From a virus, in the IMG/VR virus record IMGVR_UViG_3300045988_106448: a DNA stretch of 64,000 nt. The stretch is one strand, 5' to 3'. Position numbers and translations under genes: made by a program. Below are positions 5,168 to 58,171 of this stretch, piece after piece; position 1 is the stretch's first letter; every line of letters begins with the position of its first letter. The notes under the pieces were generated by a model. It searched no databases. It was not told the origin of the DNA and saw nothing but the letters and a program-made list of their open reading frames with translations.

Positions 5168-5180
5168 TTGTATATTTGTA
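5168..5180 (+). promoter_or_regulatory. Bacteroidota-type promoter -7 element, 'ttgTATATTTGt'
   Basis: Matches the TAnnTTTG consensus of Bacteroides sigma-A promoters. Sits 40 nt upstream of the 5218 ATG. The same 12-mer recurs at 17177 and 49183. Confidence 0.4.
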
Positions 5181-5217
5181 GCGCAAAGTTCTGAATAAGA
5201 AAATAAAATTAAAAAGT

Positions 5218-5901: not shown

Positions 5902-5907
5902 TAGGAT

Positions 5908-8760: not shown

Positions 8761-10088
8761 TGATTATGAATCTTAGAAAAATTTTAGGTTATCGCACAAC
8801 GGCAGAAAAGTTGGAAGATTACCGGGCTCTTAAAGAGCGTTTAAATGAATTAAGTGTCGTCGGGAAGGGTTTAGCTGATAAGTTTATGTTTCAGAAATCG
8901 ATGGTGGATGGAATTGAACTTATACCCGAAGCAAAGAGGGGGCAAGTGCTTGACAGTTATAAAACCTTCGTCCAAGAGCATTCTAAAGAAGTGGCTAAGG
9001 CAGTTTCTGAAAGGGAACGTATTCTTAAATCTATTGAGAAATACCGTAACGATCCAGAGATAAAAGATGCCTGCCAGAATATAGATACCATTGACACGGC
9101 TACCATTGCGTACCGGGCTGGAAATCTGAAAAAGGATGGGTATTTTACCCTGTTGAAGTCCCTAACGGGTGAACCCACGAAGTACGCTGATGTTATTGCT
9201 TTCAATAGGGATGGCAAAATGCTCGTGTTGCACCGGGTAACTGAATTGATGTGTAACGGTACGGTATGCGTGCCGGGTGGTCACGTTGATCCGGGTGAAG
9301 ATTTTTTGGTGGCGGCTTTACGTGAATTGAAAGAGGAAACTAATCTTGACCCGTTAGATGGTGGTATTGAGGAGTTGGGAGAATACCGTAGCGAGGATGC
9401 CCATATCAAGTATTACAAGATTTATGTTGACGAGTTGCAACCTGTAACTCTTGATGCTACCGAGCATTGTTTCTACGAGTGGATTGACATTGCTGAAATA
9501 CCGTTGAAACCATTCATATTCGATCAAGGGAAAAACATTTTGAAATTGTTAACCCCGGAAGGATTTGAAGAGAAGGTGACCCCATTGTTAAAGGCGTACC
9601 ACGAAGGCAGAATAGAGAAGGCTGCCTTTATACCTGCTTATTCTTTCATGCTTGCTAAAGCGTTAGGGGTTTCTACCGAGACAGAGGGTCGTTTAATGCC
9701 CGAATCTTTAGAGGGAAGCAACGGTAAGCGCAAGCGGGCGATAGTCCCTGTACGAGACCCTAAGAAGAACGTGGAGCGCATTTTAAAGGCAGTAAGCGGC
9801 GAGGCAGAATTGTATCTAAGCAAAAGCCTGAAATTGGAAAAGCCTTTCATTATCCATGAGGTAACGTACAAAAGAACTCCAGAGACCAATTATTTGACAG
9901 AATTGGAACTTGTTTACGAGGGTGATGAAGCCCAAGTGCGACAAGTGCTAAAAGTATTGAAAGATAATTTCTTGCGGGGCGATGGCGTTAAAGTTAAGAC
10001 AAGTCACGAAGAATTTCTGGCAGCTAACGAGCACGGTACAGATTACGTCGGTGATCCCATATTTGTGGAATTAGAAACCGTTGCGTAA
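8760..10088 (+). CDS. Nudix hydrolase domain protein, 442 aa, Nudix box at about residue 170
   Basis: 'GGHVDPGEDFLVAALRELKEETNL' fits the Nudix box G-x5-E-x7-REUxEExGU with G to N at one position. Embedded in the head module. Confidence 0.6.
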   Translation: MIMNLRKILGYRTTAEKLEDYRALKERLNELSVVGKGLADKFMFQKSMVDGIELIPEAKRGQVLDSYKTFVQEHSKEVAKAVSERERILKSIEKYRNDPEIKDACQNIDTIDTATIAYRAGNLKKDGYFTLLKSLTGEPTKYADVIAFNRDGKMLVLHRVTELMCNGTVCVPGGHVDPGEDFLVAALRELKEETNLDPLDGGIEELGEYRSEDAHIKYYKIYVDELQPVTLDATEHCFYEWIDIAEIPLKPFIFDQGKNILKLLTPEGFEEKVTPLLKAYHEGRIEKAAFIPAYSFMLAKALGVSTETEGRLMPESLEGSNGKRKRAIVPVRDPKKNVERILKAVSGEAELYLSKSLKLEKPFIIHEVTYKRTPETNYLTELELVYEGDEAQVRQVLKVLKDNFLRGDGVKVKTSHEEFLAANEHGTDYVGDPIFVELETVA

Positions 10089-38542: not shown

Positions 38543-39937
38543 ATGAGTAAATTAAATATTTATCGGAACACATTCTTAGAGAAAGAGGAACTTGATCAGT
38601 TGGTCAAGTTCTCCACTCAGAATACGGCTTTAGAAGCCATTCTGTCGGCTTCTCTATCCTTTGGGCTTGTGTCTCCCGGTTCAAAACCGGGTGTGCCCTT
38701 TAGGGTTACGGTTTCCACTACATTTGGAACCGTGAACATTGCCGGGGGGTACGTGATCGGTCCGAATTACAAACCGTTTTACGTGCCGTCGCAGCAGAAT
38801 TTTGTCATTCCTAATGACAATCAGTACTATTGGATTAAGGTAGCGTATCGGTCAACCAACACGGAACCGGGGTACGCCGCTGTTGATGCCTCTGGTAACT
38901 TATCAGGAACCGTGAATTTTGCGGGCTTAGTTCGAGGTCAAAGTTCTGGTGTTGCCACGTGTATCAAATTTGTTAAATTTGATGAAGAGGGAAATCCAGT
39001 GGCAGTCTTGAATGACAAGGTTTATCAGGTAGTTGATATCGTGAATGACACGAATCTAGTGTTATCAAGCGGATACGCCTTCCAACCGGAACAACAATTG
39101 AAAGTCGTTATTTTGGGAAGTATGCCTATGGGTCGTAGGTTCACTGACGCTCAATTAGCGGGCGGCTTGTATCAATATGATTCTTACAAAATTAGTTTGG
39201 TACTGGAAACCACCACCGGAGTACAACCTCCTAAAGATGAAAACGAGTATTATATTGCTAGGGTACAAAATAACGGAGGATCGATAACGATTTTGGATGA
39301 GCGAGAGGAATTTTGGAATTTAGGTGGAGGAGGGACACCTTCGGAGTTGTTCACGTTAACGATTTTGCCAAACCCTACTGACGCCCGAGTAATCATTGAC
39401 GGAGTGGTTACTAACACCGTGACAGGTGTGAACGGGCGAACGGTTTCTTATTCCGTTTCAAAATCTGGTTATGTTACTAAAACGGGCACATACACGTTTC
39501 ACGGTACAGATGAAACTCTGACCGTGACGCTTGTGGAAGACCCAAATCCTCCCGTGGAGATTCAGGTGACTTGTCGTACTGAAACAGGTGACACCTCACA
39601 AGGTTCTATTCAGTTGAATAGTGGGAACAAGGTGGCTTCTGACACGCAATCAGCTATTGCGGGGATACCCCAGACGATAGAGGCATATCCGGCAGAAGGA
39701 TACGCTTTTGCCGCATGGTATCGTAACGGTGTGCAATGGAGTACAAACGTGCAGGAAAATCCAGTGTTAACGTCTGATACTACATTTGTAGCTTATTTTG
39801 TGCCTTCGGTTGGACATTATTGGGATTTTGAAGTGAAACTTCAGACACCCGTTGGAGGACAAACTCATGAATTATTAACTGTGCCTTCTGCTTCAGGAAC
39901 AGGAGAAGACGAAGGCGTGATGGTAAAAATAAACTAA
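38543..39937 (+). CDS. Putative tail fibre / receptor-binding protein, 464 aa, with a carboxypeptidase-regulatory-like beta-sandwich segment
   Basis: 'LTILPNPTDARVIIDGVVTNTVTGVNGRTVSYSVSKSGYVTKTGTYTF' resembles CarbopepD_reg-like domains, which are common in Bacteroidota surface proteins. Confidence 0.4.
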   Translation: MSKLNIYRNTFLEKEELDQLVKFSTQNTALEAILSASLSFGLVSPGSKPGVPFRVTVSTTFGTVNIAGGYVIGPNYKPFYVPSQQNFVIPNDNQYYWIKVAYRSTNTEPGYAAVDASGNLSGTVNFAGLVRGQSSGVATCIKFVKFDEEGNPVAVLNDKVYQVVDIVNDTNLVLSSGYAFQPEQQLKVVILGSMPMGRRFTDAQLAGGLYQYDSYKISLVLETTTGVQPPKDENEYYIARVQNNGGSITILDEREEFWNLGGGGTPSELFTLTILPNPTDARVIIDGVVTNTVTGVNGRTVSYSVSKSGYVTKTGTYTFHGTDETLTVTLVEDPNPPVEIQVTCRTETGDTSQGSIQLNSGNKVASDTQSAIAGIPQTIEAYPAEGYAFAAWYRNGVQWSTNVQENPVLTSDTTFVAYFVPSVGHYWDFEVKLQTPVGGQTHELLTVPSASGTGEDEGVMVKIN

Positions 39938-42627: not shown

Positions 42628-44727
42628 ATGATAAGATTTAATGAGGATGGGAAGCTGTCGCATAAGCAGCTTGACGCCGTTTTCAACACCACATTCAACG
42701 TCCTGGAGGCTCTCCCTACCAAGGCGTTGAATCAACTGTTGGACGGGTATGGCGGTGATGTCGATGAAATGATGAACGAGATATTTAAGCAAACGAATCA
42801 GGTGCTTAATTTAAACCATACCTTAGAAACCGAACGTCTTCAGTACGTTGATTGTCTTACGGAATCAATGGATGAAACGTTAAAGGTGAAATCTTACAAT
42901 TATTTCAAGACGACCATGCTGCCTTCCTTTAGACAAGGGTGGAGAAATTTAGAGTGGGGTAATATGGTGCAGTTATATCCTAGTAGTGCGTACCTTGCCG
43001 CTCGTTCACATGGAAAGTGTTTTATTGCGGGCACTCCAATTTTAATGGCAGATTTCACGGTTAAGAACGTGGAGGACATTTACCCCGGCATGGAAGTAAT
43101 GGGGATAGATTACACGCCTCGTAAAGTGCTTACCCGACATATAGGTGAGGGGCAAATGTTTAGGGTAGAACAAGAGAATGGCATCCCCTACGTGGTGAAT
43201 TTCTGGCACGTGATGTGTTTGTATGACACCAAGAAGAAAGCGTATGTGGAAATGCCGATGAACGAGTTTTATAAATACCCGGTAAAGAAGCAGCGTCGTT
43301 TTCAGGGGTATCGGGTATTTAGTCCGGACACACCAATCTTTGAAAAGAGTGATATTAGAGTGACTTGCATTGGTAGGGATTCTTATTACGGTTTCATGAC
43401 AGATGGTGATCATTTGTTCCAATTAGAAGATGGAACAGTGGTGCATAATTCTTACGAGTTTTGTTACGCCTTTCCATTGTGGAGGCTGTACACCTACAAA
43501 CGCCCCACGTTCATGAGGGCGGACACTCCCGATAATAAGAATCGTCAAGAAACTTGTATTATTACTAATACGGAAAAGTTGGGTAAGGAGCATATTGATA
43601 AAATTGCGGAGGAAATTAAAATTAATGATGCTCTAGGCTATCGTATTAACCCGAACGGAAAGGCGTCACTTGCTGCCACGGGTATAGAGGGGGAGAACGG
43701 TACGAAATTGCACTTGCGTGGAAAGGATGGGTTTATTCGTGGTTTGCACGTGGGGGCGGCGGTGAGCGATGACTTACCTGACGAATCCAGTATATACAGT
43801 TTGGAACAGCGTGAGAAATTGATTGATTTGTTCAACGGTACGATTTCACCTATTGTTGAGCCATACGGGTATAATCTTGTGGATGGAACCCCGTATCAAG
43901 AGAATGACCTTTACGCTAAGCTGAAAGAAGACCCCAAGTTTAAAGTATTCGAATACCCGGCAGTCTTTCCTGATGGACGTTTGCTCGCTCCCGACCGTTT
44001 CACGTTTAAGAAATTGATGGAGGAAAAACAATCATTGGGAACTATGGTGTTTAGCCGTGAGTATTTGGTTGTGCCAATCAGTGACGATAGTACGATATTC
44101 CCGTGGGAAATTCTTATGCGTAGCACGTATGGAATGGAAAAGTATATGTTAGTGAATAACATAGAATCTTTTCCTATTAAACTAGCCAAAGTAGTGATTG
44201 GGTGCGACTTTGCTGTTTCCGGTAACGTGGGGGCGGATTACACTTGTTATTCCGTTTGGGGTAAAGATTTGCTAGGGAATTATTATCTCCTATATATTTA
44301 TCGTGAAAAGGGGCTTTCTCATAACGAACAGTTGAATAAAATAATGCAGCTAGACCGTAGCTTTAAACCAAGCGAAATCGTAGTAGAAAATAACGGTTTC
44401 CAAAGCATACTTGCGGATATGGCACGTCAACAGGGTATTAGAAATATTACACCATTTACCACCACAGCCGGAAATAAGAAAGACTTACGTACTGGGTGGG
44501 TGTCGTTGGCAGCGTTGTTCGAGCGTGGGGCGATAAAATGCCCGTGGCATACCGATAGCCGTAAACAGGTCGAGCAAATGTTCGGGGAATTCAATAGTAT
44601 TGCATTTCGTCCGGACAAGGGAACGCTAGAAAGTATTAGCGGGCATGATGATACTGTGTCATCGGCGTTTATGGCTATTAACAAGTTGAGAGAGGGAACT
44701 ATTAGAGTAGTAGTAGATTCAATTTAA
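42628..44727 (+). CDS. terL: Terminase large subunit, ATPase plus RNaseH-like nuclease, interrupted by an in-frame mini-intein
   Basis: The P-loop 'AARSHGK[intein]SYEF' is reconstituted after intein removal. The C-terminal nuclease motifs 'VIGCDFAVSGN' and 'SGHDDTVSSAFMA' are typical of terminase nuclease domains. Confidence 0.75.
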   Translation: MIRFNEDGKLSHKQLDAVFNTTFNVLEALPTKALNQLLDGYGGDVDEMMNEIFKQTNQVLNLNHTLETERLQYVDCLTESMDETLKVKSYNYFKTTMLPSFRQGWRNLEWGNMVQLYPSSAYLAARSHGKCFIAGTPILMADFTVKNVEDIYPGMEVMGIDYTPRKVLTRHIGEGQMFRVEQENGIPYVVNFWHVMCLYDTKKKAYVEMPMNEFYKYPVKKQRRFQGYRVFSPDTPIFEKSDIRVTCIGRDSYYGFMTDGDHLFQLEDGTVVHNSYEFCYAFPLWRLYTYKRPTFMRADTPDNKNRQETCIITNTEKLGKEHIDKIAEEIKINDALGYRINPNGKASLAATGIEGENGTKLHLRGKDGFIRGLHVGAAVSDDLPDESSIYSLEQREKLIDLFNGTISPIVEPYGYNLVDGTPYQENDLYAKLKEDPKFKVFEYPAVFPDGRLLAPDRFTFKKLMEEKQSLGTMVFSREYLVVPISDDSTIFPWEILMRSTYGMEKYMLVNNIESFPIKLAKVVIGCDFAVSGNVGADYTCYSVWGKDLLGNYYLLYIYREKGLSHNEQLNKIMQLDRSFKPSEIVVENNGFQSILADMARQQGIRNITPFTTTAGNKKDLRTGWVSLAALFERGAIKCPWHTDSRKQVEQMFGEFNSIAFRPDKGTLESISGHDDTVSSAFMAINKLREGTIRVVVDSI
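43018..43449 (+). mobile_element. Mini-intein (Hint domain, 144 aa, no endonuclease domain) inserted in the terminase P-loop
   Basis: Begins 'CFIAGTPILMADF' (block A, Cys1) and ends 'DGTVVHN' followed by Ser+1 ('SYEF'). Excision rejoins GK-S of the Walker A motif. Confidence 0.75.
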
Positions 44728-47360: not shown

Positions 47361-47831
47361 ATGGAAAACGAATATCGTATTAGTCACGAACAGTTCCTAA
47401 TTAATCTTCAGTTAGAGTACCTAACTCATAGATTAAGATCATTGATTTACCGAACAGCGTCTTACGCTCAGGTGGCGGCAGATATAGCATCTAAGAAAAG
47501 ATCGAAGATAGAGGATTTGGGAAAGAAATTTGGGATACGGACAATCTTTAGTCCGGGCTTTGACGTATTAGGGTTTGTAAACTTATATTTCTGGTCGGGG
47601 CGGGGTTTACCGCACTTCCAATATAAGGATGAGGAACAAAGAAGAGTACAAGGTAATTATGACAAATGGTATATTTTGTTTCGTGGAACACGAGTGAAAT
47701 ATAAAGGCAGGAGAACCGAAGTTGTTTCGAATAATCCTGTCCGGAAAGAGGTAATCGTCAAGACTCTTTCTGGCAATCAATTGGCGAAATATAGTGAATT
47801 AACAATTAAAAAAGATTTCGAATGGATTTGA
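47361..47831 (+). CDS. Hypothetical protein, 156 aa
   Basis: ORF with ATG start. Confidence 0.4.
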   Translation: MENEYRISHEQFLINLQLEYLTHRLRSLIYRTASYAQVAADIASKKRSKIEDLGKKFGIRTIFSPGFDVLGFVNLYFWSGRGLPHFQYKDEEQRRVQGNYDKWYILFRGTRVKYKGRRTEVVSNNPVRKEVIVKTLSGNQLAKYSELTIKKDFEWI

Positions 47832-48076
47832 AAATTGTAAACCACAGTACACATGAATTGCCCGTGTACAAGACAAAAGATTCGGCAGGAGCCGATTTAA
47901 GAGCGTTCTTACCTGAAGAGAAAGTTATTTACCTGCAACCGGGGGAACGTCGATTAATCCCTACTGGATTACACATGGCTATTCCGGAGGGGATGGTAGG
48001 ATTTATTTGCCCTCGTAGCGGTATGGCGGTAAAACAAGGTTTGACCGTTATTAACGCTCCGGGAGTAATAGACGCT
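47822..48076 (+). CDS. dut: dUTPase exon 1 (motifs 1-2 and the first half of motif 3, ending ...GVIDA)
   Basis: 'SAGADLRA' (motif 1), 'CPRSGMAVKQGL' (motif 2), 'GVIDA' (start of motif 3). The reading frame then hits a stop 7 codons into the insertion. Confidence 0.75.
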
Positions 48077-48946
48077 AAACTTTTAATGACTGCCTAAGAT
48101 GTATCAAAGGTTCTTTATATTAATTTTGGTAACTTTGCATTCAAATAATAATGCTATGGGGAAATTTGATAGAGAACCAAATTGTCAATGTCCAATTTGT
48201 GGAATTAAAATGTGGGTTAAACCTTCTTCTTTAAGAAAGGCGAAACATGGGGTTTGTTGTTCTATGGAATGTTCTAGGAAATTACGTTCAAATTTTATGA
48301 CAGGTGTAGGGAATCATCAGTTTGGGTTGACAGGAAATTTGAATAGTTCCTTTAAACATAATGAGAAAATAAATTCGGCAGGTTATGTTATGGAAAATGT
48401 TCCTGGACACCCTAAAGGTGGAAAAATTCGAGAAAGGTCTAAAACAACTTATATTTTGAAACATAGATTAATTATTGAAAGAAATTGTGAAAAGTTTCCT
48501 CAAGAATTATTTGAAAATATAGGGGGTTGGATAGTTTTAAAAGATTGTTATGATGTTCACCATATAAATGAAGACAGAACTGACAATCGGTTAGAAAATC
48601 TTGAAATTTTAACTCGAGGTAAACATACTGCAATCCACAATTTAGAAAAGACAATTATAAGAGATGATACTACGGGTAGAATAATTGGTGTCTTTAAACG
48701 AGGTGAATTGCTGGGAAGTCCAGAGGTGGATAATCAGCAGCCAAGCATTAGTAGTAATACTTTTGAAGGTTCAACGACTAACAGCCGAATCCAAACAGAT
48801 AATGCTGAGGATAGTAATGCTGACACGAGTGCCTCGCCCCTATTTATAGGGTGAAGATATAGTCTGAACTTTGCAAATAACCTAAAAGTAAAGCAAAGAA
48901 ATAATAGGATAAAGAGCCTATTAGTGTAACAACTCCACATAAATTG
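48077..48946 (+). mobile_element. Group I intron-like intervening sequence of 870 nt carrying an HNH homing endonuclease ORF
   Basis: The 5' exon ends in U (gacgcT) and the insertion ends in G (aaattG). Precise joining recreates GVIDA|DYRGDV, dUTPase motif 3. The downstream exon has no ATG. Confidence 0.65.
48099..48854 (+). CDS. Intron-encoded HNH homing endonuclease (HNH_3-like), 251 aa. The true start is possibly the M at 48156.
   Basis: 'CQCPICG...CCSMEC' zinc finger and 'YDVHHINEDRTDNRLENLEILTRGKHTAIHN' HNH core. The C-terminal 70 aa may be read-through of the intron core. Confidence 0.65.
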   Translation: MYQRFFILILVTLHSNNNAMGKFDREPNCQCPICGIKMWVKPSSLRKAKHGVCCSMECSRKLRSNFMTGVGNHQFGLTGNLNSSFKHNEKINSAGYVMENVPGHPKGGKIRERSKTTYILKHRLIIERNCEKFPQELFENIGGWIVLKDCYDVHHINEDRTDNRLENLEILTRGKHTAIHNLEKTIIRDDTTGRIIGVFKRGELLGSPEVDNQQPSISSNTFEGSTTNSRIQTDNAEDSNADTSASPLFIG

Positions 48947-49141
48947 GATTACCGTGGAGACGTGGGTGTGCCTCTAATTAATTTGGGACAGGACGTTGAG
49001 AAAATTGAAGATGGCGACCGTGTGGCACAAATTGTTTTCGTGCCATTCGTGCAGGCGAATTTTCAGGTGGTAGCAACCGAAGCTGATCTTGGAGAAACTG
49101 AACGTGGTCAAGGAGGATTTGGACATACCGGGAAGAATTGA
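48947..49141 (+). CDS. dut: dUTPase exon 2 (second half of motif 3, motifs 4-5)
   Basis: 'DYRGDVGV' completes motif 3. 'RVAQIVF' is motif 4. 'RGQGGFGHTG' is motif 5. In frame with exon 1 after removal of 48077-48946. Confidence 0.75.
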   Translation, partial: DYRGDVGVPLINLGQDVEKIEDGDRVAQIVFVPFVQANFQVVATEADLGETERGQGGFGHTGKN

Positions 49142-49238: not shown

Positions 49239-49943
49239 ATGGCAAACGCATTAGCAACTAGAGTAAAATTCCGTAAGTATTCGGCAGAGCAACTTCAGAA
49301 CGTTATCAACAATGAGGAATCAAACGAAGTAGAAATTCAGGTAGCGACAGAGTTATTGGAAAAGATGGGTGGAGCACCCGCACCCAAAGAAGCCCCGGTA
49401 GCCCCCGCAAAGAAAGAGGCTCCGAAGGTAAAGAAAGCCCCGGCTCCTAAAAAGGAAGAACCGAAAGCTGAGAAAGAAGACAAGGCTGAAAAGGAGTTAC
49501 CCGCTGACAAGTCACCGGAAGCGGCTGCAAAACGTCAGAACAAAAAGACAACGGAATACGTTTCGGATGAACAATTGACTCCGGCAGAACAAGCCCGCTT
49601 AGACAAGGCTGAAAAGGAGTTTGATGAACGCCAGAAAAACCGGAAAACCCCTTCCAAGTCTGACAAAACGATGAAGGAGAAGGCTCCTAAGACTGAAAGA
49701 GCAACCAAGCGTGAAAATCTTGAGGAATCAAACGAAGTACCGGGCTTGAAGGTTGGTAGCCAAGTAACCTTGAAAGAAGGTTCCGAGGTAGGTACGATTA
49801 CCCGTGTATATCTATCTTCGGATGGTAAAGAGAAATGTATGGTGAAGTTTGGTGATGCCAAACCAATCAAGAAGCGTGTGACGGCTGTGGAACTCGCAGA
49901 AGAAGCTAAACCGAAAGCCGCCCCGAAAAAAGCTAAGAAATAG
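49239..49943 (+). CDS. Histone H1-like low-complexity K/A/P/E-rich protein, 234 aa
   Basis: 'APAPKEAPVAPAKKEAPKVKKAPAPKKEEPKAEKEDKAEKE' and a C-terminal 'KPKAAPKKAKK'. Promoter-like motif upstream. Confidence 0.5.
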   Translation: MANALATRVKFRKYSAEQLQNVINNEESNEVEIQVATELLEKMGGAPAPKEAPVAPAKKEAPKVKKAPAPKKEEPKAEKEDKAEKELPADKSPEAAAKRQNKKTTEYVSDEQLTPAEQARLDKAEKEFDERQKNRKTPSKSDKTMKEKAPKTERATKRENLEESNEVPGLKVGSQVTLKEGSEVGTITRVYLSSDGKEKCMVKFGDAKPIKKRVTAVELAEEAKPKAAPKKAKK

Positions 49944-50674
49944 TGAGCCCCACTATATATCTAGTCAAAGGTATTTCAGGAAGTGGCAAATCAACAAGGG
50001 TTTACCTATTCTTGGAATACCTTGAATCATTAGGGCTAGAATTGACACCCTTTAAATTTAAAACACTTGACGGAAAAGAAAAGGAAGTAGGAGTTTATTG
50101 TGAGGATTTGGATTTGATTTTCGTTGGGAAGTGGTACGAAAATGGCGGTGTACGCCGTTGGCAGGGGCACGACAGTATGACGGGGCGGTTATGTCATTCT
50201 GAAGGGCTTAGCTACTTCCTAAAGAGTGTTGCACAAAAGGGTCACAGTGTTGTTTTGGATGGTGCGGGTACGACGGCAACATGGCGGCTTAGACCCAAAT
50301 TCCTATTTGAGGACAACGGGTTTAAGAGTATTGTTCATATACGGTATGATTACAAGCCGGAGCAGTTGCAAGAATATTATGACCGGATCGAATACCGTTC
50401 TGGCGAGCCTCCCAAGGGGGATAGTATGTGGCGTAAAAGTAAAACCTTCCTACATGACTATCAAAAGGCTGTAGAAGAGGCTAAGATGGTTGTATCGGCA
50501 GGTTGCCACGTGTCTTTACATGATGAACCATACGATACCCCGGTTTACGATTTGGGTGTTAGAATTTTGGAGCACGTGGGTTTGGAAGACGTGCAAGATG
50601 AGTTCATCGCTTATTGTCAAAATTCAGATTATCTAATTAAAAACTCCTTTAATGAATTCCAGAAAATAAAATGA
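49943..50674 (+). CDS. P-loop nucleotide or nucleic-acid kinase, 243 aa. Candidates are a dNMP kinase or a 5-hmdU DNA kinase-like enzyme.
   Basis: Walker A 'VKGISGSGKSTRV' at residues 8-20. Apparent GTG start overlapping the upstream TAG (no in-frame ATG before the P-loop). Size matches T4 gp1-type dNMP kinases. Confidence 0.5.
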   Translation: MSPTIYLVKGISGSGKSTRVYLFLEYLESLGLELTPFKFKTLDGKEKEVGVYCEDLDLIFVGKWYENGGVRRWQGHDSMTGRLCHSEGLSYFLKSVAQKGHSVVLDGAGTTATWRLRPKFLFEDNGFKSIVHIRYDYKPEQLQEYYDRIEYRSGEPPKGDSMWRKSKTFLHDYQKAVEEAKMVVSAGCHVSLHDEPYDTPVYDLGVRILEHVGLEDVQDEFIAYCQNSDYLIKNSFNEFQKIK

Positions 50675-51459
50675 AATTTCGAGGGCGTATATATTGTATA
50701 GAATGTACTGTAAATCATAAGTGGTATATTGGTCAAACTTCTAGAAGTTTACAAGTTCGGATGAATGGGCATATCAAGTTAGCTCTGAGGGGAGGGGAAT
50801 TTGCTTTAAGTCGTGCTATACGAAAATACGGCGTTGAAAACTTTGTAATCGAGGAAATCATGTGGGTTGAGGCTCCTAATAAACATTCTCTAAAACAGAA
50901 ACTCGATTTTCTGGAACGCCATTTTATAGCCCGTTACGACACGAAACATACGGGCTATAATATGACGGAAGGAGGAGAAGGTGTATTAGGAATTCAATTT
51001 GATGAAGAGTCTAGAATAAAAATGTCTGAATCTGCTAAAAATAGATGCGATGAAAATTTTAGAAGAAGACAATCTATTGTTGCTAAACGTTTATGGCAAA
51101 AGGAATCTTTTCAAAAGTTAAGGTCAGAAGCCGCCCATTTGAATTTATTAAATAAAGAAGTTCAGAAAAAGATGGGTTTGGCTCGCCGAGGATTAAAGTT
51201 TACTGAAGAGCATAAGAAGAAAATAGGTTTAGCCGTAAGCGGGGAAAGGAATGGTATGTATGGGAAAAGCCACCCAAAAGAATTTATTGAAAAATTTACT
51301 AAGAAAGTTTATCAATATACTCCAGAGGGGGTTTTAGTGAAAGAATGGTTTTCTATTATTGATATTAAAAGAGAATTGAAAATAGGCAGAAAATGTTTAA
51401 AGAAAGCTATTGCAAATCAATTTATTTATCATGGTTATATTTGGAAATTTAAAAGATGA
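50671..51459 (+). CDS. GIY-YIG homing endonuclease, free-standing, with NUMOD-like C-terminal DNA-binding repeats
   Basis: 'GRIYCIECTVNHKWYIGQTSRSLQVRMNGH' (GIY...YIG...R...H) and 'GYNMTEGGEG'. C-terminal 'KMSESAKNR', 'KIGLAVSGERNGMYGKSH'. ATGA overlap with the upstream gene. Confidence 0.7.
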   Translation: MKFRGRIYCIECTVNHKWYIGQTSRSLQVRMNGHIKLALRGGEFALSRAIRKYGVENFVIEEIMWVEAPNKHSLKQKLDFLERHFIARYDTKHTGYNMTEGGEGVLGIQFDEESRIKMSESAKNRCDENFRRRQSIVAKRLWQKESFQKLRSEAAHLNLLNKEVQKKMGLARRGLKFTEEHKKKIGLAVSGERNGMYGKSHPKEFIEKFTKKVYQYTPEGVLVKEWFSIIDIKRELKIGRKCLKKAIANQFIYHGYIWKFKR

Positions 51460-52454
51460 AAAAGAATAAAATTATTCCAGTCCCTAACGAAAATTTTCAA
51501 TATTATTTGTATTGGATTACTAAAAGAATGGAAATTTTTTGGAACAAATACGAGGGTAAACCCGCCCCATGGACGGACGATCCTATATTACAAAAATATA
51601 AATTTTGTAATACGTACAGGTGCCTCGACAGAGTTAGTCAGTACCTGTTGAGCCACGTGATTTACAACGGTAAGGATTACGAACCGGAAGATATGTTTTA
51701 CCGCATATTGTTGTTCAAACATTTTAACAAGATAGAAACATGGGAAGCGATTGAAAAAGAATTAGGGGATATTACCCTTAATGTGGAATTAGAAGACATT
51801 GCCAAATGTCTTGATGATATGGTAAAACGAGGCATTACCATTTATGGAAGTGCTTATATTATTAATTGTTGTTTCTACCAATTACCGGAGTATTCCTACA
51901 TGAAGGGGATGTCTAAACACCGGGCACACTTTAGCGTGTTTCAACGTGAAATTTTTGACAACGGGCATATTTATGACTTCCTAGACGCACAGTCATTAGA
52001 GGAGTTGTTTTGGGTATTCCGTAAGATGAAAATATACGGGGACTTTACGGCACAACAATACGCCATTGACATGAATTACAGCCCTCTGTTTGACTTTAAC
52101 GAAAATGATTTTGTTATAACCGGACCGGGTTCAATTCGAGGAATTGAGAGGACTTTTCAGAATGCCCGTGGGTGTGATTACGTGGGTGTGATGAAATGGG
52201 TTCTTGCCCATTTTACGGAGTTGATGTATGAACAAGAAAAGGAGAAAGGTTTCACATTTCGTCCACTTCCTAATCGTATGCCCACGTTGATAGACTTGCA
52301 AAATTGCTTCTGTGAAACGGATAAATATTTGCGGGGTGCCGGGGTTGAAACAGAAGGATTAAAAGTGAAAGGCGAGCGGATTAAACACACTTACGAGGCG
52401 AACCGTAATAAAATTAAATACACGTTGCCACCTAAGTGGAATGTGAAACTTTAA
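51456..52454 (+). CDS. Hypothetical protein, 332 aa, inside the nucleotide-metabolism cluster and a candidate base-modification enzyme
   Basis: No recognisable motif. Flanked by a P-loop kinase and a GIY-YIG endonuclease upstream and a ThyA-family enzyme downstream. Confidence 0.45.
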   Translation: MKKNKIIPVPNENFQYYLYWITKRMEIFWNKYEGKPAPWTDDPILQKYKFCNTYRCLDRVSQYLLSHVIYNGKDYEPEDMFYRILLFKHFNKIETWEAIEKELGDITLNVELEDIAKCLDDMVKRGITIYGSAYIINCCFYQLPEYSYMKGMSKHRAHFSVFQREIFDNGHIYDFLDAQSLEELFWVFRKMKIYGDFTAQQYAIDMNYSPLFDFNENDFVITGPGSIRGIERTFQNARGCDYVGVMKWVLAHFTELMYEQEKEKGFTFRPLPNRMPTLIDLQNCFCETDKYLRGAGVETEGLKVKGERIKHTYEANRNKIKYTLPPKWNVKL

Positions 52455-52465
52455 TTTCAAGAACC

Positions 52466-53521
52466 ATGTTTTTACAAGCTGAAAATTTAAACGAGGCATT
52501 TATTTGCCTTTGTCAAGAACTATTTTATCACGGCGAAGACGTGACCCGGCGTGGCTTTAAATGCCGGGAAATTCCTCGAGCGGTGTTAGTGGAAATTACC
52601 AATCCAGTAGACCGTTATGTGCGTGTGCCAGAGCGCAAATGGAATAAGGTGTTGGGGTGGGTTGAATCCCTATGGATCGCTCGTGGGGATAATGCTTTAG
52701 AAATGCCTGCTGCCTATGTTAAGAACCTGAAGAATTTCAGTGATGACGGCATACACATGAGAGCCGGGTACGGTCCGAGATTCAGACATTATGGGGATAA
52801 CGGGGAATTTAAACCATTGTTTAATCTTCCTATTTCAACAGGATTTCCCGTTGACCAACTTAGATTTGTCATTGAAAAATTTAAGGAGGACATTGACACA
52901 CGGGAAGCGGTGGTTACTATTCATGACCCTGTAATGGACGATTTCGGTCCCGTAGATAACAGTGGGGTGGCTCCTGTTTTACGAACAAAGGACACTCCAT
53001 GCACCCGGTCAATTCATTTCATGATTGTGAACGGTGCGATGAATTGCTACGTTGACATTCGGAGTAATGATGTTGTATGGGGCTTTAGTGCCGTGAACGT
53101 GTTTAACTTTACGTTAATGCAGGAATACGTCGCCGCTCTGGTAGGCGTGCCCGTGGGTAAGTATTACCACAAGGCTGATAACTTGCACGTGTATGAAAAC
53201 TTCTTACCGTTGGTGGAGGAGATTGCCAAGAAGTACACGGGTAACGAATACCCTTCTGGAACCCGGTTCGCTTACAAACCCTCCTACAAAACTCTTCAAG
53301 AGTTTGATGCTTACATAGGTAAACTCAGCACCTTCGAAGAATTGTGTAGAGGGAAGAAAGTTCCGGCAGAAGAATTGGAAGTGATACTTAGAACCTTTAC
53401 CGATGACTTATTTAACGATTGGGCTAAAGTGTTCTTCACCTACTGGACTAAACACCCGGTAGAGTTTACCAATCCGTTGTTAAACGAAATATTTTGTTTT
53501 GATGAATTACGAGAAAATTGA
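52466..53521 (+). CDS. Thymidylate synthase-family enzyme, either ThyA or a dUMP hydroxymethylase-type pyrimidine C5-transferase
   Basis: 'PCTRSIHFMIVNGAMNCYVDIRSNDVVWGFSAVNVFNF' aligns to ThyA 'PCHAFFQFYV...[23 protein letters not shown]', with the catalytic Cys in PC(T/H) and the uracil-specifying Asn conserved. Longer and more divergent than canonical ThyA. The ORF-track start is a GTG; the ATG is at 52466. Confidence 0.6.
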   Translation: MFLQAENLNEAFICLCQELFYHGEDVTRRGFKCREIPRAVLVEITNPVDRYVRVPERKWNKVLGWVESLWIARGDNALEMPAAYVKNLKNFSDDGIHMRAGYGPRFRHYGDNGEFKPLFNLPISTGFPVDQLRFVIEKFKEDIDTREAVVTIHDPVMDDFGPVDNSGVAPVLRTKDTPCTRSIHFMIVNGAMNCYVDIRSNDVVWGFSAVNVFNFTLMQEYVAALVGVPVGKYYHKADNLHVYENFLPLVEEIAKKYTGNEYPSGTRFAYKPSYKTLQEFDAYIGKLSTFEELCRGKKVPAEELEVILRTFTDDLFNDWAKVFFTYWTKHPVEFTNPLLNEIFCFDELREN

Positions 53522-54041
53522 CATCCTATTAGGGATGAAGGATATCCAAAGGCTACCAAATACCCCCCACCACCGGGGGTATAACCTTTTGGAACATGGT
53601 TTGGTAGTTGGAATGTTATTCCGGTGGTTCGCTTCAGAAGAGAACGTGGCGTACGACATTAACGTGTTTGACAAGGTTCTCCTACATGATTTCGTTGAAA
53701 GCGTCACGGGGGATTTAAACGCTTGTGTTAAGAAGTTTAACGATAAGACAGCCAAGGCGTGGGACATTATTGAATTTGAAATATGCCACGGCAACCCGGT
53801 ACTCGCCCCCTATTCTGATCAGGAAATAAAGAAAGCCATGACGGATCAGCAATATCGTCTATTTAAAATGTGCGATTATCTTGATTTGTGGATTTTCTGC
53901 CGGAACGAAATGGCGTTGGGAAACCGAGCGCAAAAGTTGGTTAAATGTTTGTCTAACTGCGAAAAGCTATTGGCTCACTATTCTCATGAATGGGCTGAGT
54001 TTAAAAGCATCGCTAAATTCATGAAACAATATGAAGGGTAA
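53502..54041 (+). CDS. HD-domain phosphohydrolase, YfbR-like 5'-deoxynucleotidase family
   Basis: 'HHRGYNLLEHGLVVG' plus 'LLHDFVESVTGDLN' gives the H..H...HD...E..GD metal-binding signature. The ATG at 53502 overlaps the upstream gene end. Confidence 0.55.
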   Translation: MNYEKIDILLGMKDIQRLPNTPHHRGYNLLEHGLVVGMLFRWFASEENVAYDINVFDKVLLHDFVESVTGDLNACVKKFNDKTAKAWDIIEFEICHGNPVLAPYSDQEIKKAMTDQQYRLFKMCDYLDLWIFCRNEMALGNRAQKLVKCLSNCEKLLAHYSHEWAEFKSIAKFMKQYEG

Positions 54042-54711
54042 AGTTATTGGGTTGGTAGGTGTAATTGGTAGTGGAAAAAGCTATACTTTAAAACGTCTTA
54101 AAGAGGAGGCTTCCAACACCTCCAGATTATTTATAGAAGGTGACTTTAGTGAAGGTATTCGTCAATTTATCATGAACATTTACGTGGGTAATGACGTGCC
54201 GATAGATGTGAATGGTGGAGCGTATGCCAAATGGAAGGCACATCCTAATGAAATTGCGTTACCCGTGTTTAGAGATGATGCCGGGAATTTATCATGCGGT
54301 ACGATTACCGGGCGCAAACTACTTCAACGGGTTGGAGAGTACATGAAGGCGATGGCAGGTAATGACGTTTGGGCTAAGTGGACGAAGACAGACGTTATGC
54401 GGGCATATAACAAGGCTTGTCTGATTTACCCCACGGCTAAGATTGAAGAAATGACAATTACTTTCGGGTCGGTGCGTTTCTTATGTGAAGCCCAAGTGGT
54501 TTTTGACGTGGCAACCCTTACCGATAAAGAACCCGTGATTATCTTTTGCAACCACAAGTCAGATTCCTACGAGTTGAATGATCACGTTAGTGAAGCATTT
54601 GCTCGGCACTTTGTTGATTTGGGTTACAAGGACGGTCAAGACATTACCGCCGAGGTACGTAGATTATTATTAAATTCAGAAAAGGATGAAAGATTTTCTA
54701 GCATATCTTGA
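54031..54711 (+). CDS. Second P-loop kinase, 226 aa, dNMP-kinase or DNA-kinase-like
   Basis: Walker A 'LVGVIGSGKSYTLKRL' at the N-terminus. Overlaps the HD gene end and the polymerase gene start. Confidence 0.5.
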   Translation: MKGKVIGLVGVIGSGKSYTLKRLKEEASNTSRLFIEGDFSEGIRQFIMNIYVGNDVPIDVNGGAYAKWKAHPNEIALPVFRDDAGNLSCGTITGRKLLQRVGEYMKAMAGNDVWAKWTKTDVMRAYNKACLIYPTAKIEEMTITFGSVRFLCEAQVVFDVATLTDKEPVIIFCNHKSDSYELNDHVSEAFARHFVDLGYKDGQDITAEVRRLLLNSEKDERFSSIS

Positions 54712-57700
54712 GAGAAATTTAATGGATTATACCCTGATATCAGATTACGTTGTTGATATCGGGGGTAAGACATTCGAGTTATACAAGCCCGCTCATGATG
54801 GAGCGTTATTCGATGACGACTTTAATTTCGTGGGGATTCCCGCTAATCCTGACCGGGCTTCGGTAGAGGAATCGTCTACGGAAACTGAATGTGATTTTTA
54901 CGCTTACCGTTTCGGTGGGGTGTGGTATATGCTACCACGAGGAAAAGAGAACGAGGTAAAATTGATTCGGTTAAAATACGTGGGTGCGGCACTTCAGGAA
55001 GTTCCTACACGGGTATTTCTGGGGGTGCATGGTCAGTACGAAATGATGTCCGGGTCAGGCACGTATAAAGAATGGTGCCAGAAGGCGAAGTTTTTAGGGG
55101 TTCACACGTTAGGTATCTGTGAGAAAAACAGTTTAGCCGGGGCGTTAAAATTCCAAACGGAATGTATCGCTGCCGGGTTAAAGAGCGTGATTGGAATGGA
55201 GTGCAGCGTGTATGATGAACCAAACGATTATGCTTTCACGGCTAAGGTGTACGCTCGCAATGAAAAGGGATGGAAGGACTTGTTGACAATAAACAAGTTT
55301 ATAAATTGTGACAATCCTAAATATATAGGAGTTGCCGACTTTCGGAATATTACTCGTGGCAATAATGATCTTGTGGTATTTTTAGACCCCAAGGCGTTGG
55401 ACTATGACAAGATTGGAATGTTGGGTATTGCGGGGATTACCAATTTATACCAATTAGACCCGGCTATATACACCGCCGAAAAGCGTGACGAGTGGTACTT
55501 GAAGAATCTTAAAAAGTTCTTTCATGACAAGTCGCTGACAGCCGTGGCGGCTATTGATGCGTGGTATTTGGATGAAGAATACAGTTGTATTCGACCTCGG
55601 TTACACAGCATGGGGAACACGATAGCCTATGCAAGTGAGAATCAGTATTTCAAATCAAACGATGAATACTTGTTAGAATTGTCAGAGTTATTCCCTAAAA
55701 CTGATGAAGGGTTCGAAATGGCGTATAACAAATTCATGGATGCGATAGACGTGTTGGAAAACGTTGCCGAGGCGATTACCTTTACCATAGACGTCAAGAA
55801 ACGCCACTTACCCCACTACAAAATGACAAAGGAGGAGGCGGCAGAGTTTGACAACAATGAGGATCTCTTTTGGTCTCTTATAGACAAGGGGCTTGAGGCT
55901 CATCCTGACTTAATTGAGGATTGGGGTGAAGAGGTTATTATGGAGCGTATTGAGAGGGAAGTGGGGGTTATAAAGCTAGGTGAAGCGATTGATTACTTTT
56001 TAATCACGTGGGACATTATCAATTGGTGCCACCGTAACGGTATCATGACGGGGATTAGTCGTGGGAGTGCCGGAGGTTGTTTGGTATCATATCTGTTGGG
56101 TATTACCAAACTTGATCCCATGCGGTATGACTTACTGTTCGAGCGTTTCTTGAATGCGGGTCGTGTGAAGGTTTCCCTACCTGATATTGACTGTGATTAC
56201 CCCGGTGAAGACCGTCCTCGTGTAAAGAAGTACATGGAGGAACGTTACGGGTGGAAACAGGTGTGTTCGGTAGGAACGTACAGTGCTCTACAATTACGTG
56301 CGGCTCTTAAAGCCTTGTCACGGGTGTACGGTTTGCAATTCAAGGACGTTAACGACATGATGAAGTTGTTTGACGTGAAAGACCGTAAGCCGGAAGACCT
56401 GTTTAAGATAGCGTGTGCCCACCCCGTTGTTAAACACTTTGTCAAGGAACACCCGGATTTGATTAACGAAGCGATGCTCGTGATGCCCGCACCGTTGGCG
56501 CAGTCTATTCATGCTTGCGCCATGATGGTATTCCCAGATGAAAACGATATGTTTAGATGGGTGCCTATTCGTAAACAGGGGGACGAGTACGTTACCGAAT
56601 GGGAAGGTGGTGAGATGGATGCAGCCGGGTTCTTGAAAGAAGACGTGCTAGGGGTGAAACAGTTTGACAAGTTTCAGGACATGGTACGTTTGATTAAAGA
56701 ACATGAAGGTGTAGACCTTGATATTTTTAGCGTGCCGTTGGATGACCCTGAAGTGTACGCCTATTTCCAAAATGGGTGGAATGAAGATAACTTCCACTTC
56801 GGCAGTAACGGGCTAACCGGGTATTGCAAGCAAATGAAGCCTGAAAATATAGAGGACTTGATTGCGGCTATATCCCTGTACCGCCCCGGTGCGATGGAGA
56901 ACAACTTCCATAATGAATACGTGTTGCGTAAGGAGGGCACTAACAAGGTAGAGTATTTCGTTGGTACGAAAGATATTCTTAAGAATACGTATGGAGTGTT
57001 CGCTTATCAGGAACAGATCATGCAGTTATGCCGAGAGTTAGGAGGGTTGTCATTGGTGGAAGCAGATGACGTGCGTAAAGCGATGGTGAAGAAGAAGTAC
57101 GAGGCGTTACAGCAATACAAGGAAAGATTTATTCCCTATTACCGGGATAACTACGGCGTTAGCCAAGAATACAGCGAGAAGGTGTGGGATGCCATTGACA
57201 AGGCTTCAACGTACTTGTTTAACCGTAGCCACGCCGCCGCCTATGCCATTACCGGATACATTTCCCAATGGATTAAGGTGCATTATCCGATAGAGTATTG
57301 GTCGGTAGCGTTTAAATACGCCCAAGACTTTGATTACCCCCGGTACATTGCGGAAATTAATAAGACGGGGGTCTGCACGGTGCGTCCTGTGGATATTAAC
57401 TTGTCGGCGTTGGATGTTACCATTAACTTTAAAGAAAAGGCTCTGTATTGGTCTATAACCGGAATAAAACAAGTAGCGGAAAAAGCCGCAACCCAAATTT
57501 TAAAAGAGCGTGAAGAGAATGGTGATTACTATTCGTTGGATGATTTCGTGGTTCGGCATAAATGGAAGGGTTCGGCGGTTAATAGCCGTATCATACGAAA
57601 CCTAATTTTAGCGGGGGCGTTTGACAAGTTGGAAAACGTGCAGGAACCTTCAGATCGTATTGATTTGTTGATTAATTTCTTAGGTTCTACTAATACCGAA

Positions 57701-58171
57701 ATTAAAGATGATGACCCGGTACTTGAAGGGGCTGACAAGCACATGGGAGATGCGTGGTGGTGGGCACTCATGCAAAAGAAAGTGTCCGGGTTGGCATTCT
57801 TTGATTATCGTGGCATTTACGAACGATACGGTGGGGGACAATTCCCGCCCGAGTACGTGTATTCTGAAATAGAGGAGTGTCAAGGTGAAACCCTTCCTAA
57901 CGGTAATCAGGTTATTGTAGCCGGGTTCGTTACGGAGTTTGAACTTAAGAAGACACGTAAGGGCGAAATGATGTGTAAAATACTGTTGGAAAATAATTAT
58001 GACTTCCTAGAAGTTATGGTATTCCAATCAGAGTTTGAAACATTAAGGGACTACCTGACCGGGCGTGGGGACATCATCATGCTGAATGGCTCGATAGCGT
58101 ATGATAAACGCAAGGAAGTAAACATTTTAAGGGCGAATTTCGAAACGAATATCGTCACTTTAACGTTATAA
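54686..58171 (+). CDS. dnaE: DNA polymerase III alpha-type (DnaE-like) replicative polymerase with an N-terminal PHP domain, 1161 aa
   Basis: PHP region 'VFLGVHGQYEMMSGSGTYKEWCQKAKFLGVHTLGICEKNSLAG'. Palm motif 'GISRGSAGGCLVSYLLGITKLDP' (compare DnaE 'GPGRGSAAGSLVAY.LGIT.IDP'). 'FDKLENV' clamp-binding-like C-terminal region. Confidence 0.8.
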   Translation: MKDFLAYLERNLMDYTLISDYVVDIGGKTFELYKPAHDGALFDDDFNFVGIPANPDRASVEESSTETECDFYAYRFGGVWYMLPRGKENEVKLIRLKYVGAALQEVPTRVFLGVHGQYEMMSGSGTYKEWCQKAKFLGVHTLGICEKNSLAGALKFQTECIAAGLKSVIGMECSVYDEPNDYAFTAKVYARNEKGWKDLLTINKFINCDNPKYIGVADFRNITRGNNDLVVFLDPKALDYDKIGMLGIAGITNLYQLDPAIYTAEKRDEWYLKNLKKFFHDKSLTAVAAIDAWYLDEEYSCIRPRLHSMGNTIAYASENQYFKSNDEYLLELSELFPKTDEGFEMAYNKFMDAIDVLENVAEAITFTIDVKKRHLPHYKMTKEEAAEFDNNEDLFWSLIDKGLEAHPDLIEDWGEEVIMERIEREVGVIKLGEAIDYFLITWDIINWCHRNGIMTGISRGSAGGCLVSYLLGITKLDPMRYDLLFERFLNAGRVKVSLPDIDCDYPGEDRPRVKKYMEERYGWKQVCSVGTYSALQLRAALKALSRVYGLQFKDVNDMMKLFDVKDRKPEDLFKIACAHPVVKHFVKEHPDLINEAMLVMPAPLAQSIHACAMMVFPDENDMFRWVPIRKQGDEYVTEWEGGEMDAAGFLKEDVLGVKQFDKFQDMVRLIKEHEGVDLDIFSVPLDDPEVYAYFQNGWNEDNFHFGSNGLTGYCKQMKPENIEDLIAAISLYRPGAMENNFHNEYVLRKEGTNKVEYFVGTKDILKNTYGVFAYQEQIMQLCRELGGLSLVEADDVRKAMVKKKYEALQQYKERFIPYYRDNYGVSQEYSEKVWDAIDKASTYLFNRSHAAAYAITGYISQWIKVHYPIEYWSVAFKYAQDFDYPRYIAEINKTGVCTVRPVDINLSALDVTINFKEKALYWSITGIKQVAEKAATQILKEREENGDYYSLDDFVVRHKWKGSAVNSRIIRNLILAGAFDKLENVQEPSDRIDLLINFLGSTNTEIKDDDPVLEGADKHMGDAWWWALMQKKVSGLAFFDYRGIYERYGGGQFPPEYVYSEIEECQGETLPNGNQVIVAGFVTEFELKKTRKGEMMCKILLENNYDFLEVMVFQSEFETLRDYLTGRGDIIMLNGSIAYDKRKEVNILRANFETNIVTLTL

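Follow-up and report, generated by a model that had tools for sequence, protein, structure and literature searches.

The DNA considered here, hereafter the window, is a stretch of 64,000 nucleotides (nt) from IMG/VR record IMGVR_UViG_3300045988_106448. Between 47.8 and 58.2 kb it carries a module of genes, all on the + strand, that had been proposed from its gene content to replace thymidine with 5-hydroxymethyluracil (5-hmU) or to hypermodify it further (the original prediction). The module opens with a gene for dUTPase in two exons (47822-48076, 85 codons, and 48947-49141; Pfam dUTPase, E = 7e-10 and 6e-12, respectively), followed by that for a 234-amino acid (aa) protein rich in Lys, Ala, Glu, and Pro (49239-49943). 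Next are encoded a predicted 5-hydroxymethyl-2'-deoxyuridine (5-hmdU) DNA kinase of the HMUD2 type (kinase 1; 49943-50674, 243 aa) and a 332-aa protein of clade 1 of the alpha-glutamyl/putrescinyl thymine pyrophosphorylases (aG/PT-PPlases; 51456-52454), a candidate enzyme for the processing of 5-phosphomethyl-2'-deoxyuridine (5-PmdU). There follow a thymidylate synthase (TS)-family enzyme predicted to be a dUMP 5-hydroxymethylase (52466-53521, 351 aa), an HD-domain, YfbR-like 5'-deoxynucleotidase predicted to be a dTMPase (53499/53502-54041), a P-loop protein predicted to be a deoxynucleoside monophosphate (dNMP) kinase like Dnk of phage T4, with 5-hmdUMP as its substrate (kinase 2; 54031-54711, 226 aa), and a DnaE-type replicative polymerase with PHP, DNA_pol3_alpha, finger, and HHH_6 domains (54686-58171, 1161 aa). 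Elsewhere, the window encodes portal, capsid, and baseplate J proteins, an intein-bearing terminase, a DnaB-like helicase, a primase, an Mre11-like phosphoesterase, RecA, and an SbcC-like protein; with structural and replication genes thus spread across it, the window represents a phage genome.

For comparison, loci of phage relatives and of bacterial genomes were fetched, with labels between L004 and L160. The order dUTPase, 234-aa-type open reading frame (ORF), kinase, 332-aa protein, TS homologue, HD protein, kinase 2, and DnaE recurs in L077 and L078 and, because the 332-aa proteins of these relatives are only 51-62% identical to that of the window, the clustering of the genes is not due to chance. 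The ORFs and motifs given in the original prediction were all present as described, with the ORFs at the stated coordinates on the + strand. Its gene list was right in what it named but omitted a GIY-YIG/NUMOD3 gene between those for kinase 1 and the 332-aa protein and, having correctly placed the dUTPase beside the module, it missed the splitting of that gene by an 870-nt group I intron; it was also silent on the 234-aa ORF.

The predicted hydroxymethylase, nucleotidase, and kinases

The TS-family enzyme was originally noted to keep the catalytic Cys and the Asn that specifies uracil while being far from a canonical ThyA, and both its motifs and its scores bear this out. Cys179 (within a PC motif), an R-S-x-D motif, and Asn211 are all retained, and the protein matches Pfam Thymidylat_synt with E = 1.4e-17. 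Such features would also suit ordinary nucleotide salvage, in which a divergent but genuine thymidylate synthase and dNMP kinases serve a phage with canonical DNA, and a plain ThyA had indeed been named as the alternative. However, scores against all seven NCBIfam ThyA equivalog models fell far under their cut-offs (34-66 bits vs. 108-427; e.g., 66 vs. 174.6 and 48 vs. 427), and the residues Trp80, Trp83, His147, and Gln165 of Escherichia coli ThyA are replaced. The C-terminal lid of ThyA is absent; instead, a C-terminal extension of ~90 aa is found as in the phage hydroxymethylases, with which the protein also has the motifs ESLW, FSDDG, TKDxPC, and RSND..WG in common. Its best phage matches were the hydroxymethylases of SPO1 (gp29; tblastn, E = 7e-34), SP10, and the ViI-like and M6-like phages. 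It is 30-32% identical to the enzymes of SPO1, SP10, M6, and Montesquieu compared to 24% for E. coli ThyA, and its best match in the PDB was the CMP hydroxymethylase MilA (3.5e-20 vs. 5e-8 for ThyA). The TS homologue thus groups with the phage dUMP hydroxymethylases, and a hydroxymethylase is predicted. With kinase 1 falling, moreover, into a family of base-directed DNA kinases and not of dNMP kinases, and with no place in a salvage pathway for the PF18723 domain of the 332-aa protein, the explanation by ordinary salvage is highly improbable.

Translated from the ATG at 53502, as called in metagenomes, the HD protein is a 179-aa product that matched both PF12917 (55.5 bits, cut-off 25.9, E = 7e-15) and the structure of E. 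coli YfbR (2paq; E = 6e-8), with the HD...E..GDL metal motif aligned, in agreement with its earlier description as a YfbR-like deoxynucleotidase. Its score against the NCBIfam YfbR equivalog, 35 bits, lay under the cut-off of 122, and it is therefore regarded as a member of the YfbR family and not as an orthologue. It is also homologous to, and syntenic with, gp59 of phage M6 (2.5e-11). Kinase 2, recognized as a second P-loop kinase in the original prediction, gave no tblastn match among GenBank phages and no sequence match in the PDB; it is predicted to be a T4-Dnk-like dNMP kinase that acts on 5-hmdUMP. Both this putative Dnk-like kinase and the YfbR-like HD protein fit the steps that precede replication in phages of the SPO1 type.

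Kinase 1 had been recognized as a P-loop kinase, for comparison with the 5-hmdU DNA kinase (5-HMUDK) and dNMP kinase families. It matched PF18747 ('5-hmdU DNA kinase 2') with 86.8 bits against a cut-off of 25 (E = 1.9e-24), and not a thymidylate or dNMP kinase family, and it aligned nearly full length (residues 5-228) with gp243 of Salmonella phage ViI (BLASTP, E = 6e-21), which is itself the archetype of the family (5.6e-169 against PF18747). Within its Walker A motif, VKGISGSGKST, the GISGSGKST portion aligned to GTSGTGKGT of gp243; no sequence match was found in the PDB. ViI gp243 and SP10 gp186 have been shown to phosphorylate 5-hmdU in DNA (PMC8989533), and kinase 1 is, as judged from its sequence, a member of the ViI gp243 5-hmdU DNA kinase family of the HMUD2 type.

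The clade-1 protein and the variable slot

The 332-aa protein was initially thought to be devoid of recognizable motifs, but it matched PF18723 over profile positions 3-275 of 281 (268 bits, cut-off 25, E = 1.2e-79). It aligned to the C-terminal half of SP10 gp186 (gp186C; E = 5e-20) and to M6 gp55 (2.7e-16), and full-length homologues exist in the ViI-like Ackermannviridae phages; a further homologue, in Glutamicibacter phage Montesquieu, is annotated in GenBank as 'alpha-glutamyl/putrescinyl thymine pyrophosphorylase clade 1.' No clade-1 homologue of more than 33% identity was found among the GenBank phages of the collection searched. The suggestion that the protein is placed where a modification transferase of the aG/PT-PPlase family would be expected was hence correct as to the family, but the protein belongs to clade 1 and not to clade 2, that of the proven amino-acid:DNA transferases.

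The 332-aa protein was modelled confidently by AlphaFold with 31 homologues as input (pLDDT 91.7), and it has a helix-hairpin-helix, glycosylase-like fold in common with the solved clade-2 enzyme, a 5-PmdU glycinyltransferase. Some 30 residues are invariant over the 31 homologues, among them C286, E287, and K290 in the final long helix; in the model, C286-E287(-T288) falls within helix 278-295 at the C terminus. The nucleophile of the clade-2 enzyme is a Cys in the equivalent helix, and its metal is bound by a Glu-Thr pair (PMC11472151); the reference residues compared were E243, T244, and C247 of the PaMx11 transferase. The equivalence of C286 to the clade-2 catalytic Cys is only suggestive, and it is not claimed here given that profile comparisons of clade 1 with ViI gp247 or a clade-2 alignment were not significant. 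For the 332-aa protein, sequence searches gave no match in the PDB and none to PF18724, and its comparison with a DUF2400 protein of the same genome gave nothing.

The clade-2 proteins (PF18724; M6 gp51, ViI gp247, and PaMx11 gp46) are the only enzymes proven to turn 5-PmdU into a hypermodified base (PMC8989533). No match to PF18724 or to a clade-3 model was obtained among the window ORFs of at least 90 aa. Reliance on Pfam alone as a test of absence was dropped after PF18724 was seen to miss the lineage's own transferases, present in L076 and L080. Six-frame searches were instead made with local hidden Markov models (HMMs) of clade 2, which are a valid test of absence because, unlike Pfam detection, they include these transferases, together with an HMM for the pyridoxal phosphate (PLP)-dependent decarboxylase of the ViI gp226 type. 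These searches covered the window and the fetched loci with which the ~113-kb genome of a close relative (IMG/VR contig 3300045988_093070) was tiled, with the addition of metagenome contigs holding exact copies of window proteins. Neither a clade-2 transferase nor a PLP decarboxylase was detected in this material, and only the controls, ViI, M6, and Montesquieu, scored; likewise, no tailoring enzyme of the PLP, radical S-adenosylmethionine (SAM), or flavin adenine dinucleotide (FAD) type was found in the phage gene set. Hence, the hydroxymethylase and the 5-HMUDK are present, but a full pathway of the ViI/M6/PaMx11/PhiW-14 type is incomplete for want of a clade-2 transferase. The virion DNA should consequently be free of the ViI, M6, and PaMx11 bases. 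A count of cultured phages with clade 1 only, by tblastn with ViI gp247, was abandoned as too insensitive, since M6-like phages were missed.

The locus of the relatives L077 and L078 is of a minimal form in which the kinase and clade-1 genes overlap directly, followed by those for TS, HD protein, kinase 2, and DnaE. Being kept in relatives down to 51% identity in clade 1 (62% in L077, 51% in L078), this form is maintained and not the product of a recent loss; the clade-1 cluster of L077 holds 3,796 member sequences, and the same direct overlap, by a few codons, is found in L013. At ~44-48% identity, other genes fill the junction between the kinase (or the dUTPase) and clade 1. In L076 (7785-10038) and L080 (2376-6004) this slot is occupied by a gp226-like PLP decarboxylase (9e-84) and a clade-2 transferase (1.4e-44), with an additional 251-aa protein in L080 that by eye has a methyltransferase-like glycine motif, while in L081 a transferase gene immediately precedes clade 1. 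The slot of L079 (3046-5992) encodes a protein whose C-terminal part weakly matches a phosphotransferase family (APH) and whose N-terminal part has, by eye, a DxDxT motif, together with a cytidylyltransferase-like protein and a glycosyltransferase; no P-loop DNA kinase was found in the L079 locus. The transferases at L076 8857-10038 and L080 3394-4587 gave no match to PF18724 yet matched the Montesquieu clade-2 protein (5e-55) and ViI gp247 (~1e-23 to 1e-26), and routine annotation will thus overlook them.

The presence of the PLP decarboxylase and/or the clade-2 transferase in L076, L080, and L081 marks this as a hypermodification locus. It is composed of a conserved core (hydroxymethylase, HD protein, dNMP kinase, DNA kinase, and clade 1) and a variable tailoring slot, which is empty in the window phage. 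With the slot either empty or filled by a PLP enzyme and transferase or by a glycosyltransferase set, modular evolution of a pathway is seen within one phage lineage, and different final bases are expected among the variants.

A proposed two-stage pathway and the bacterial cassettes

As read from its genes, the module probably encodes a two-stage system in which thymidine is replaced and the replacement base is then processed, i.e., a stripped-down form of the ViI/M6/SP10 pathway. The original idea of a module for 5-hmU replacement or hypermodification agrees with the family assignments, and none of the sequence results named beforehand as contrary to it was obtained. In the first stage, each step of which is drawn from homology and synteny, the dUTPase would supply dUMP once splicing has removed the intron from its transcript, and the TS-family enzyme would place the methylene of methylenetetrahydrofolate (CH2-THF) onto C5 of dUMP for hydration to 5-hmdUMP, not dTMP. 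The HD nucleotidase would drain dTMP, the Dnk-like kinase would provide 5-hmdUDP and a host nucleoside diphosphate (NDP) kinase 5-hmdUTP, and the DnaE polymerase would incorporate 5-hmdU in place of T. The pre-replication set of the hmU phages consists of a hydroxymethylase (HMase), dTMPase, dTTPase, and dNMP kinase (PMC8989533). In the second stage, the gp243-type kinase would, given its homology to a proven enzyme, phosphorylate the 5-hydroxymethyl group in DNA to yield 5-PmdU. The fold, invariant residues, and gene order of the clade-1 protein suggest that it could then flip the base out, attack C6, and expel the phosphate to form an exocyclic methylene; capture of the methylene by hydride would regenerate thymine within the polymer, while capture by another nucleophile would create a new adduct.

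A Cys-dependent mechanism with an exocyclic methylene has been described (PMC8989533; PMC11472151), and in borohydride-trapping experiments the methylene intermediate of clade 2 was chemically reduced to thymidine (PMC8989533; PMC11472151). Phages SP10, PhiW-14, ViI, and M6 turn unmodified 5-hmdU back into thymine by an activity to which no enzyme has been assigned (PMC8989533), and all four carry a clade-1 gene (PMC5889632 Table 3). Given this restoration of thymine in clade-1-bearing phages and the chemical reduction to thymidine, we infer that formation of thymine at the polymer level is the leading candidate for the product, with a new adduct as the alternative. It is proposed tentatively, and with more doubt than confidence, that the gp243-type kinase and the clade-1 protein are the only enzymes to act on 5-hmdU in DNA, that clade 1 is an enzyme in its own right, which could either convert 5-PmdU to thymine within the polymer in SP10, PhiW-14, ViI, and M6 or, as a transferase, install a novel base, and that the same enzyme, paired with a hydroxymethylase-like TS, underlies a widespread bacterial cassette described below.

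The failure to find any transferase or tailoring enzyme would also be accounted for by an end point of the SPO1 type, with 5-hmdU DNA packaged as such or partly phosphorylated to 5-PmdU, and with clade 1 as a non-catalytic, DNA-binding helper of the kinase. The present Pfam name of PF18723, 'HMUDK_hel', describes it as no more than the helical domain of the kinase, and in SP10 the two are fused; moreover, lysate mixtures without M6 gp55 still gave the glycinylated intermediate (PMC8989533). Both the Pfam label and the lysate result also count against a catalytic clade 1. A mere helper is, however, difficult to reconcile with the invariant Cys-Glu pair and the ~30 invariant residues, with a modelled fold resembling that of a 5-PmdU-processing enzyme, and with the fact that the SP10 kinase domain works without its clade-1 domain. 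Kinase-free bacterial cassettes further argue for an activity of clade 1 itself, and an end point of the SPO1 type is accordingly considered unlikely.

These cassettes emerged from a scan of 185,579 species genomes for clade-1 homologues, which returned 220 loci, many in Bacteroidota chromosomes, with identities of 35-47%. In the best 80 of the 220 loci, for which contents were counted, a gene for Nmad2 was present in 51, one for a ThsB-like TIR protein in 50, and an adjacent TS-family gene in 42, with a radical-SAM gene replacing the TS gene in 12; a DNA kinase was found in just one of the 80, the phage-like L081. The cassette TS proteins are 34-45% identical to that of the window, with the PCTR and MRSND..SAVN motifs in common and the Asn kept, and they are closer to it than are SPO1 gp29 or any characterized phage hydroxymethylase. 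The cassette itself (L082-L160; L074 8878-13458) comprises genes for the ThsB-like TIR protein, Nmad2, clade 1, and TS or, in place of the last, a radical SAM/SPASM protein and a 494-aa protein. In L074 it is surrounded by abortive-infection and TIR genes in the manner of a defence island, and related domain sets occur among validated or predicted defence systems (PMC13092281).

The cassettes show that no DNA kinase is needed for clade 1 to work and that a TS-like enzyme is its most constant bacterial partner; in bacterial genomes, the homologues nearest to the 332-aa protein and to the TS protein are neighbours in these kinase-free cassettes. The function of clade 1 may hence be tied to the TS-like enzyme, or its substrates may be free nucleotides and not 5-PmdU in DNA; both points lower the confidence placed in 5-PmdU as its substrate. 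Applied to the phage, this would have the TS-like and clade-1 proteins acting as a pair on free nucleotides, to make or destroy a modified nucleotide or to counter a host defence, with no role on the DNA polymer. The phage pair sits, though, between a 5-hmdU DNA kinase and replication genes, a DNA-acting transferase is encoded between the kinase and clade 1 in relatives, and all characterized phages with PF18723 make DNA derived from 5-hmdU (PMC5889632), so that such a nucleotide-level role is quite improbable.

Other points, too, weigh against the two-stage pathway with a catalytic clade 1. Every assignment rests on identities of 24-34%, and the product of the TS homologue could, from its sequence, be either hmdUMP or dTMP. 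The activity given to the clade-1 protein here is a prediction. The pairing of C286 with the catalytic Cys came from a non-significant hhalign alignment (probability 0.4%), and a Foldseek search gave no match in the PDB.

Mobile elements, host, and relation to known systems

The group I intron (48077-48946) was recognized by a match to Rfam RF00028 at 48647-48888 (58.7 bits, E = 3e-13) and carries an HNH homing-endonuclease ORF (48099-48854; HNH_3, E = 1e-7). It is absent from L012, where the dUTPase gene is uninterrupted and encodes 149 aa; exon 1 of the window aligns base for base with this intact gene as far as the intron. The last base of exon 1 is a T and that of the intron a G, and the joined exons come to exactly 149 codons, as in the intact gene. 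The intron is present or absent among near-identical relatives, and its HNH region has 85% nucleotide identity to that of the dUTPase intron of Carjivirus communis (crAssphage), which suggests exchange of the intron between unrelated phages.

The free-standing GIY-YIG/NUMOD3 homing-endonuclease gene (50671-51459, 262 aa; Pfam GIY-YIG and NUMOD3; phrog_314, E = 5e-26) lies exactly at the junction between kinase 1 and clade 1, with a few terminal codons of each gene replaced. It is absent from this junction in L013, L077, and L078; L013 has an unbroken junction, with a different GIY-YIG gene after clade 1 (5171-5989). The gene is a mobile one outside the pathway. A homing endonuclease that split a fused gene like that of SP10 gp186 was considered and rejected, since the kinase and clade 1 are separate, overlapping ORFs in the endonuclease-free variants. 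GIY-YIG genes occupy differing module junctions across the relatives of this lineage, which is rich in mobile elements: DnaE is split by a 262-aa ORF in L005, L007, and L013, with an extra DnaE intein in L007, and UvrD helicase inteins occur in L004 and L005. The large terminase of the window (42628-44727) has a Hint/intein insertion (Hom_end_hint, residues 131-200) ahead of its RNaseH-like nuclease domain.

The DnaE polymerase is 36-39% identical to those of Tenacibaculum, Cellulophaga, and Chryseobacterium phages (39% for Tenacibaculum/Cellulophaga) and ~30% identical to those of Bacteroides phages. These relatives, the Listeria-Bacteroides repeats in the tail region, and the crAssphage-like intron make a Bacteroidota host in the gut likely; the label of myophage given in the original prediction is an inference only. 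The repeats occur as at least eight Listeria-Bacteroides/InlB B-repeat units (Flg_new, Flg_new_2) in a 1390-aa protein (18956-23128) and are found again in the products of 36119-38530 and 38543-39937; all three are likely host-binding fibres. In the assembly collection, 258 indexed blocks contain the exact RecA sequence of the window phage.

Homologues of the 234-aa protein are found at the same position in L077 (4e-77), L078 (5e-35), and L076 (2e-5). The protein has a small C-terminal domain, gave no family match in profile searches, and in this lineage is always encoded between the dUTPase and the kinase. The structural block of the window also includes, right behind the portal region, a gene (8760-10088) for a 442-aa protein with a central NUDIX domain, for which nucleotide pools are a possible target. 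A search of the window for tRNAs gave none. Outside the window, the genome of the close relative encodes a DUF2400/TIGR02757 protein (L068 5767-6552), a class II ribonucleotide reductase, probably with an insertion (L018 5750-11663), a GroEL-type chaperonin, ferritin, an ECF-type sigma factor, and a PNK3P-like phosphatase, the loci for such genes including L020 14204-14809 and L009 3463-4437; the variant L009 has a C5 DNA methylase.

No published description of such a module in Bacteroidota or gut phages was found. A published metavirome survey was queried with kinases of the HMUD1 type, and it may have missed the present lineage, which has HMUD2 only. Hypermodification of thymidine is described as protecting phage DNA from restriction enzymes and other nucleases and as hampering its amplification and sequencing (PMC12686479). 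If it is true that a common phage carries a non-canonical T, this would matter for viral metagenomes and for the biology of host defence. Furthermore, clade 1 is not masked here by a clade-2 transferase, and the module bears on the role of this universally co-occurring paralogue and on the conversion of 5-hmdU to thymine.

Among known systems, that of Bacillus phage SP10, which makes alpha-glutamylthymidine, resembles the module in its order of kinase, clade-1 module, and hydroxymethylase (gp186, gp188), and no clade-2 transferase has been detected in SP10 either (PMC5889632 Table 3). In SP10, however, the 5-HMUDK is fused to clade 1 as gp186, whereas the window has separate, overlapping genes and a kinase of the HMUD2 and not the HMUD1 type; SP10 gp218 is listed beside ViI gp243 as 'Kinase2' (PMC5889632 Table 3). 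The radical-SAM neighbour of SP10, gp185 (PMC5889632 Table 3), for which a profile search gave no Pfam match, has no counterpart in the window phage, whose polymerase is of the DnaE type and whose predicted host is of the Bacteroidota rather than Bacillus.

Salmonella phage ViI produces 5-(2-aminoethoxy)methyl-2'-deoxyuridine (5-NeOmdU) with the kinases gp67 and gp243, the serine:DNA transferase gp247, the PLP decarboxylase gp226, and the clade-1 protein gp160 (PMC5889632 Table 3). Kinase 1 of the window is a homologue of gp243, and the distant relatives L076 and L080 have homologues of gp226 and gp247 in the same locus, which for L076 would predict a base derived from serine, such as 5-NeOmdU; in contrast, the window phage is without gp247-like and gp226-like genes, and the genes that are scattered in ViI are clustered in it. 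The gene order is that of Pseudomonas phage M6, the producer of 5-(2-aminoethyl)-2'-deoxyuridine (5-NedU), in which the kinase gp54, clade-1 gp55, hydroxymethylase gp58, HD protein gp59, and polymerase gp62 occur in this sequence. M6 differs in that its kinase is of the HMUD1 type and its polymerase of family A, and in that the glycine transferase gp51, the PLP enzyme gp52, and the radical-SAM protein gp53 are encoded upstream.

With Bacillus phage SPO1, the module has in common the pre-replication logic and a TS homologue that is 30% (multiple alignment) or 34% (tblastn) identical to gp29, a proven dUMP hydroxymethylase. SPO1 differs in having no aG/PT-PPlase genes and in not being listed among the phages with a 5-hmdU DNA kinase (PMC5889632), and 5-hmdU is its final base, with T fully replaced. 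What is known, then, is the family of 5-hmdU-based thymidine modifications; what is new is an abundant phage lineage in which its genes occur in an unusual, minimal composition.

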